From Eledone cirrhosa (taxonomy: Eukaryota), in contig OZ024756.1 of assembly GCA_964016885.1 (NCBI GenBank), forward strand, positions 16,182,001 through 16,246,000: 64,000 nucleotides of DNA. The letters are read 5' to 3'. Each line of letters begins with the position of its first letter. Position 1 is the first letter of the stretch. The notes under the pieces were generated by a model. The model was given only the letters and a program-made list of their open reading frames with translations. It did not search any database and had not been told where the DNA came from. Positions 14,943 to 15,759 of this stretch are shown here, one piece after another. The translations under genes were made by a program, and so were the position numbers.

Positions 14943-15138
14943 AGTGTGTGTATATATAGTATATGTATATATAGAATACGTGTGTGTGTATAATAGAATT
15001 AGAATTTTGCTTCGAGCATACTGTATACAGATATATATTGGAATTTTGTATTTCTAAAGAAATACGGTATGTTTAGAAAGCCGTAGCTATGCAAAAACAC
15101 CGGCGGCTATCACCACCTGGCAGTGTCCAGCAGAAGCA

Positions 15139-15195
15139 AGGGAGACAATCGTCGATGCATTTCGACCTTAACTGATCCTCATCAGGGCGATCCCT
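15139..15195 (-). ncRNA. Minimal type I hammerhead ribozyme
   Basis: atcgcc-CTGATGA-ggatc/ggtc-GAAA-tgca-TC-gacgat. Confidence 0.75.
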
Positions 15196-15563
15196 CTCGC
15201 TCTTGCAAACTACTGGATTTGAAATTAGGCGAGAATATATAGTTTTCTCGACAGTGTAAATGAGGTGATTAATCTCATTTTCATATGAAGCTGTATAAGT
15301 TGGCTCAACTTAGAATAGAATTAGAATTTAGCTTCGAGCATAGCTGTTTACAGATATGTATTGGAATTTCGTATTTCTAAAGAAATACGAAATTCCAATA
15401 CATATCTGTAAACAGCTATGCTCGAAGCTAAATTCTAATTCTATTCTAAGTTGAGCCAACTTATACAGCTTCATATGAAAATGAGATTAATCACCTCATT
15501 TACACTGTCGAGAAAACTATATATTCTCGCCTAATTTCAAATCCAGTAGTTTGCAAGAGCGGA

Positions 15564-15620
15564 AGGGATCGCCCTGATGAGGACCAGTTAAGGTCGAAAT
15601 GCATCGACGATTGTCTCCCT
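15564..15620 (+). ncRNA. Minimal type I hammerhead ribozyme
   Basis: CTGATGA 15574-80, stem II gacc/ggtc, GAAA 15596-99, palindromic atgcat stem III, predicted cut after C15605. Confidence 0.78.
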
Positions 15621-15722
15621 TGCTTCTGCTGGACACTGCCAGGTGGCGATAGCCGCCGGTGTTTTTGCATAGCTACGGCTTTCTAAACATACCGTATTTC
15701 TTTAGAAATACAAAATTCCAAT

Positions 15723-15759
<37 letters not shown>

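Follow-up and report, generated by a model that had tools for sequence, protein, structure and literature searches.

The 64-kb stretch of DNA analysed here (the window) contains a 688-bp palindrome, in which a non-coding repeat of 323 nt, bearing a predicted hammerhead ribozyme, is present as two copies arranged head to head. Its arms (15036-15378 and 15381-15723) are 343 nt each and flank a 2-nt centre, AA (15379-15380). They differ at four of 343 positions (pairs 15112/15647, 15175/15584, 15196/15563 and 15197/15562), with perfect runs of 181, 76, 62 and 20 bp; all four differences are transitions and there are no indels between the arms. Three palindromes were found in the window when gapless, non-low-complexity matches with arms of at least 25 and a spacer of at most 40 were counted, and this is the longest. 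The features of the locus are as follows.

14980..14991, plus strand: left flank, (GT)5-AT, the putative priming end of the target; the AT is a possible 2-bp duplication
14992..15035, minus strand: one-sided tail of 44 nt (42-47 by ambiguous ends), at the left end only, with a second copy at 15314-15358
14992..15066, minus strand: outer copy of a 75-nt partial direct repeat, with five differences from the inner copy (15008, an indel at 15021, 15025, 15035, 15047)
15036..15378, minus strand: left arm, with hammerhead sense on this strand
15048..15065, no strand: outer copy of the hairpin GTATTTCT-AA-AGAAATAC, away from any inversion centre, mirrored at 15694-15711
15147..15192, minus strand: type I hammerhead of the left arm, core 15185-15154, predicted cleavage between 15154 and 15153
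15314..15389, minus strand: inner copy of the partial repeat (tail and hairpin of the upstream unit), without a hammerhead
15370..15389, no strand: symmetry centre, the 9-bp hairpin CGTATTTCT-AA-AGAAATACG
15381..15723, plus strand: right arm, an inverted copy without the tail, with hammerhead sense on this strand
15567..15612, plus strand: predicted type I hammerhead of the right arm, core 15574-15605
15721..15747, plus strand: right flank, AT-(AC)n, which shares microhomology with the end of the arm, where the two overlap, and reads (GT)n-AT on the other strand

The original prediction for this DNA, a 688-bp palindrome built from a repeat of about 322 nt, was correct in both respects. The period is 322 upstream of a 1-nt indel and 323 downstream of it, and the left arm region comprises, as had been proposed, one full unit plus a partial repeat (the 75 nt at 14992-15066, repeated at 15314-15389). 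The hairpin at the symmetry centre had likewise been described as pre-existing in the monomer, and a second copy is indeed located at 15048-15065, its end having been placed one base too far at 15066. Nothing is inverted at that position, and the hairpin is therefore a feature of the monomer. Among seven perfect inverted repeats of at least 5 bp listed in 14992-15389, it is the strongest; an equally long inverted repeat appeared in 41 of 1000 shuffles of one period. Two features had been missed, namely the 44-nt one-sided tail and the (GT)n/(AC)n flanks. The flanks are symmetric, in that both sense 3' ends, on opposite strands, meet the same (GT)n-AT sequence. A native site of the form (GT)n(AT)m(AC)n is present elsewhere in the window, at 14161. 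At most, the AT is an ambiguous target duplication, and microsatellite flanks would hide duplications.

The tandem copies have diverged more than the arms have. Outer and inner copies of the partial repeat differ at five of 75 positions, compared with four of 343 between the arms (Fisher p = 0.011). Both arms carry the CpG-type C/T difference that distinguishes the outer from the inner hairpin copy, and four of the five tandem differences are in the tail, outside the palindrome. Within the 64-kb window, no further copies of the 323-nt unit were found beyond low-complexity matches and one match at 51111-51162 (E = 0.039). The core motif gave no matches in GTDB (prokaryotic) genomes or in the text supplements of PMC13282606 and PMC8557442.

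The hammerhead of the right arm combines CUGAUGA (15574-80), an extra G (15581) and GAAA (15596-99) with a GACC/GGUC stem II closed by a 6-nt loop. Stem III is a single base pair capped by a palindromic UGCA loop, stem I spans seven positions with one C-A mismatch, and the cut is predicted after 15605 at an AUC site. This assignment is based on our own strict pattern and on literature description, Rfam being silent: at gathering level, Rfam detects no hammerhead and its sole match in the window is a tRNA, while a search to E = 10 around the element returns 35 sub-gathering matches, mostly to miRNA/sRNA hairpin models and none to a hammerhead. The strict type I pattern occurs in only two cores in the whole window, which mirror each other 389 bp apart, and in none of 2000 shuffled versions of the left arm. 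Taken in isolation, the hammerhead segment is unremarkable in stability relative to shuffles (z -1.4), and forcing the hammerhead fold in the monomer costs about 11-13 kcal/mol above the minimum. Poor cleavage of the monomer is predicted from the weak stem III and the stem I mismatch. Hammerheads had been reported on both strands; both cores are present, but they are not independent, the monomer holding one polarity and the second core being its mirror image. Some viroid-like RNAs carry hammerheads in both polarities. The element resembles these in size, hammerhead and self-complementary transcript, but differs in that its monomer has a ribozyme in one polarity (the left arm has no strict core on the plus strand and one on the minus strand); the two-strand pattern here is a DNA inversion.

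The unit itself is of the retrozyme or pLTR type, as first suggested: it is 323 nt long, has a GC content of 0.40-0.41, is non-coding and carries a predicted type I hammerhead. Metazoan non-LTR retrozymes share these properties, with non-coding units of 150-450 bp, GC below 50% and a structured predicted circle (PMC7229834; bioRxiv 10.64898/2026.07.22.740005). When folded as a circle, the unit is predicted to be highly self-paired (55-56%), with better folds than shuffled sequences (z -3.5 and -4.2, against sets of 100). The closest counterpart in ribozyme form is the axolotl HHR_Amex1 type, whose units of about 330 bp also have a 4-bp stem II, a 1-bp stem III and a palindromic tetraloop; HHR_Amex1 is dimer-dependent: its monomer cleaves poorly, its dimer well (PMC7229834). 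Unlike metazoan retrozymes, the element has 1.2 units and one ribozyme per arm, is inverted and shows no large target duplication between its microsatellite flanks; the duplications of retrozymes, when present, exceed 4 bp. Active elements are described as requiring two complete hammerheads, in units argued to derive from the pLTRs of Penelope-like elements (PLEs) (bioRxiv 10.64898/2026.07.22.740005); at this locus there is one core per strand rather than two or more consecutive units with complete hammerheads. The link between PLEs and retrozymes in that preprint is founded on co-occurrence and pLTR phylogeny, and in its available text the word "tail" does not occur and "inverted" occurs once. 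No inverted or palindromic retrozymes were found in a literature search that fell short of most subscription papers.

These features limit what the locus could produce. A circle of about 320 nt had been envisaged, but the partial repeat contains no second hammerhead and this locus therefore cannot cut out a circle. Similarly, no transcript of the locus holds two sense hammerheads, which precludes both a cis dimer and a circle. The proposed dsRNA of about 340 bp on read-through was reproduced as a prediction, with 346 base pairs. Read-through from either side transcribes the antisense arm first, and the pairing probability of stem II is 0.98 in the arm alone and 0.0 in the plus-strand read-through. 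The hairpin of a read-through RNA is thus predicted to silence the ribozyme by zipping it into duplex. Given one weak ribozyme per strand, no dimer partner in cis and read-through RNA in the form of a long hairpin, the copy is probably inert. Such RNA would be open to silencing or editing and, if transcribed, insertions of this kind would be ready-made sources of long dsRNA. LINE-like 3' fragments at 13031-13533 and 15952-16425, inverted relative to each other, bracket the palindrome and could add an outer duplex to read-through RNA; they were considered as part of the palindrome event and rejected as too diverged (406/516 identical). The sense strand of the unit also has a GC-rich hairpin followed by a T5 run at 15642-15665 (plus strand; mirror 15117-15094, minus strand), which resembles a polymerase III stop. 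TATATA motifs at 15236 and 15518 were rejected as a signal, being at chance level (194/1000 shuffles).

No ORF for reverse transcriptase (RT) and GIY-YIG, as an autonomous PLE would have, is present in the element. The longest open stretch in the six frames of the left arm is about 79 codons, and a 78-residue open frame at 15450-15683 has no candidate homologue among proteins of 42-137 residues. In its layout, the locus nevertheless matches insertions of endonuclease PLEs (Penelope/Poseidon, Neptune, Nematis, Hydra, Naiad) feature for feature (PMC8557442, PMC3846280). PLE insertions are described as partial tandems whose 5' end carries an inverted, 5'-truncated copy, with a one-sided tail of 30-40 bp and a bias towards microsatellites (PMC8557442). 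Palindromes of 18 and 38 bp are reported at pLTR 5' ends and are common at inverted junctions, and pLTRs are mobilised in trans (PMC3846280). At this locus there is a partial tandem (75-nt repeat, period 322-323), a head-to-head inverted 5'-truncated copy (orientation from hammerhead sense), a palindrome at the inverted junction and a one-sided tail, which at 44 nt (42-47) is slightly above the published range. The microsatellite target, (GT)5AT on the left and AT(AC)n on the right, is a weak indicator, with 26% of the window masked as low-complexity. The ribozyme shows the traits of PLE hammerheads (PMC4209133): an extra nucleotide after A9 (between 9 and 10.1), a G10.1-C11.1 pair and a palindromic loop 3. 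Pairs of hammerheads on opposite strands, 100-700 bp apart, are described in the same study. The element departs from endonuclease PLEs in its period (323 nt rather than about 3 kb), its missing RT/GIY-YIG ORF, its 44-nt tail and its flanks, which are (GT)n/(AC)n instead of (TA)n.

A biochemical parallel is provided by the Anolis element Poseidon PAc (PMC11167929). In purified form, a PLE protein nicks both strands and extends them with uncleaved RNA as a template, and in vitro two RT start sites bound the tail, the length of which equals the distance between them (PMC11167929). The element resembles PAc in its two tail-separated 3' ends downstream of the hammerhead, in a stem-loop near the proximal end and, as proposed below, in the use of uncleaved RNA as a template. 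PAc differs in being autonomous, with an ORF that begins at the hammerhead and start sites about 111-118 nt into that ORF (PMC11167929); in the element, the core ATG is closed after four codons and the ends follow the core after about 149 and 193 nt. Among cephalopods, Penelope-like elements are reported to account for 6.83% of the genome in O. vulgaris (PMC13282606). In literature searches that fell short of most subscription papers, none of the titles listed for twin priming and Penelope inversion concerned PLE structure, and none of those listed for Octopus concerned hammerhead Penelope repeats of this kind.

Three further loci in the window carry hammerheads in a head-to-head arrangement, one of them with a PLE ORF.

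45360-49969: PLE-type array with a frameshifted RT/GIY-YIG-type ORF at 48417-46646 on the minus strand
36841-37345: two copies related to the array pLTR, set head to head, with arms identical over 92 nt and (TA)n at both ends
37490-37811: inverted pair, 66/72 identical, with a hammerhead-like core at 37600 (minus strand) and a 59-nt hairpin (37682-37740) at the junction

The ORF of the array has 50 homologues at E<=1e-10, mostly unnamed, and a CxCX5C motif as in the Hydra clade, to which the array likely belongs. Pfam recognised no named domain in either piece of this ORF, and its identity comes from motifs and homologues. The array has (TA)n ends and contains pLTR copies of about 1 kb with hammerhead-like cores at 48570 (minus) and 49872 (plus) and, near 45560, a core that has decayed. 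The sequence of the inversion centre of the array (AATATT, 49077-82) is already present in the copy at 46117-22, which is not folded back, and has a predicted pairing energy of 0.0 kcal/mol within one molecule and -4.0 kcal/mol in trans; a deletion in the left arm adjoins this centre. A satellite/SINE-like piece is inserted in the array at 49577-49786. The pair at 36.84-37.35 kb has, on one side, a tail of about 95 nt that matches the array end (84/114); upstream sequence is confined to the opposite side. Each of its arms has family sequence absent from the other, which could reflect a later deletion, and the upstream homology is short. Two independent inverted arms (the left one at 36.8 kb and the right one at 49.9 kb) end at the same proximal site. 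In the pair at 37.49-37.81 kb, the core is kept in one arm only. Hammerhead-like cores of unrelated families are found at 17517 (plus), 17755 (minus), 56547 (minus) and 60535 (minus); in three of these four, the CUGANGA box is followed by an extra nucleotide.

On the basis of these observations, we consider it likely that the palindrome originated as a PLE-type event coupled to insertion, in which a non-autonomous retrozyme-type unit was inserted by a PLE RT and endonuclease acting in trans, and that the inversion likewise arose in the course of insertion, at the hairpin of the unit itself. Whether the join came about when two cDNAs, each primed on the target, annealed at this hairpin (twin priming) is a closer matter, to which we assign a little under an even chance. 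In this scheme, a donor tandem array of slightly diverged units would give rise to an uncleaved multimeric RNA, and both strands of a (GT)n-AT-(AC)n site would be nicked. Each 3' end would then prime a cDNA downstream of the hairpin, one from a distal and one from a proximal start site about 44 nt apart. Both cDNAs would cross one unit into the previous one, and their 3' ends would pair through the 20-nt self-complementary hairpin before fill-in. Pairing of the hairpin ends is predicted at -16.5 kcal/mol in trans and -5.0 kcal/mol in cis. Twin target priming would thereby account for the inverted arm together with the one-sided tail that had been overlooked.

Some observations weigh against parts of this scheme. 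For the family of the 323-nt unit, a single locus is the source of both putative start sites and of the putative fixed inversion point; in addition, no autonomous partner is found in the window, where none of the 10 other hammerhead loci resembles the unit (z <=1.1). Twin priming specifically is weakened by the right arm being wholly within the left arm and by the loop AA, which is what fold-back of the long-arm cDNA would be expected to leave. The full combination, in which twin target priming on a diverged multimer produced a retrozyme-type unit with a complete PLE junction signature, is offered as a tentative proposal.

The strongest alternative retains the PLE-type insertion but has one cDNA fold back on the built-in hairpin and copy itself, the far end being joined by endonuclease resolution or microhomology. 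Self-priming of this kind had been invoked in the original prediction and is possible; the hairpin pre-exists and is stable as DNA (-5.0 kcal/mol). It makes the sharing of variants between arms automatic, and both the containment of the short arm in the long arm and the orientation of the AA loop are as it would leave them. It is also the published interpretation: head-to-head junction palindromes were read in 2013 as self-priming on an antisense template (PMC3846280), and the tail has been ascribed to EN-mediated resolution (PMC8557442). However, twin priming also fits and explains the tail, whereas fold-back needs an extra step, by which copying stops 44 nt before the junction and the product is joined to a (GT)n-AT end that is symmetric with the other. 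The finding that both strands are primed in vitro, with a tail equal to the distance between RT start sites (PMC11167929), also argues against it. Furthermore, the loop-less AATATT centre of the neighbouring PLE is unable to fold in cis. We regard fold-back as less likely than twin priming, but not by a wide margin.

A second alternative separates the inversion from the insertion. An older partial-tandem insertion would have been inverted later at the DNA level, through a template switch or hairpin-capped break repair at a short inverted repeat, or gene conversion would have kept the arms alike. Large palindromes can be seeded by short inverted repeats, and palindromes without a hammerhead core do exist in the window. 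One such example, at 50033-50251, is 219 bp long, 96% symmetric and has no relative in the window. With a divergence of 1.2%, the arms seem younger than the tandem junction, where it is 6.7%; likewise, with four of the five tandem differences in the tail, younger or gene-converted arms also fit. On the other hand, it would be coincidental both that the copy stops 44 nt short of the end of the element, so that a tail of PLE size remains, and that the flanks are symmetric, and the three other hammerhead-bearing loci in the window are head-to-head as well. Later inversion appears improbable.

Copying of a monomeric circular retrozyme RNA by more-than-unit reverse transcription, one of the sources compatible with the original prediction, is more doubtful still. 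The size and GC content (40-41%) of the unit fit non-LTR retrozymes, its circle folds better than shuffles, and the model, in which cDNA crosses the cleavage site, was proposed in PMC4209133 and PMC7229834. However, a monomer circle copied more than once would give repeats that start out identical. Here, the divergence between the repeat copies is five times that between the arms, which speaks against a single circle unless the arms were homogenised later or are younger. A transcript of diverged tandem units therefore fits better, and from the sequence we favour a diverged multimer as the probable template over a monomer circle. The repeat difference common to both arms points the same way, although a multimeric circle is compatible with it.

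Long near-perfect palindromes are a known class of artefact. Inverted PLE structures are also reported to trouble assemblies (PMC8557442), but a fold-back chimera from library preparation or assembly is highly improbable here, given that the four arm differences are all transitions without indels (as had been argued from the mismatches), the flanks are unique on both sides, the centre coincides with a hairpin present elsewhere in the unit, and the tail asymmetry matches a biological signature.

Taken as a single locus, the palindrome is an ordinary product of a well-described class of retrotransposons, with a layout already published for PLEs. Its value is as a clean test case, in which PLE-type ends occur on a retrozyme-sized unit. 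If the tentative proposal of twin priming from a diverged multimer is true, the locus would provide junction-level evidence that PLE enzymes insert metazoan retrozymes from uncleaved multimers rather than monomer circles. The 2-nt asymmetric loop would then be a built-in strand marker which, applied family-wide, would separate twin priming from fold-back. Loop orientation in such copies can be read from any good assembly and bears on PLE head-to-head inversions.

The wider window is AT-rich animal-type DNA with dense microsatellites, SINE-like repeats and LINE fragments. The few named protein matches include Octopus sinensis (47%) and Argonauta hians (56%), as well as a gastropod and a coral; the repeats resemble those of octopus, which makes a cephalopod source likely. 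A tRNA-Lys(TTT) at 27008-27101 (minus strand; Rfam 55.6 bits, ARAGORN) contains an intron-like insertion of about 20 nt after the anticodon; introns in tRNA-Lys(TTT) are unusual in animals. A short repeat family (13991-14074, 44407-44527 and 36637-36820) is distinguished by a near-perfect terminal hairpin with 37- and 58-bp arms and is possibly MITE- or Helitron-like. The region 24816-25900 is a 72-bp satellite with 15 copies and 96% matches, the unit of which is also found at 49586-49652, within the PLE arm. A SINE-like unit of 205-213 bp occurs as tandem dimers at 16429-16838, 30861-31292, 59414-59854 and 60764-61167.
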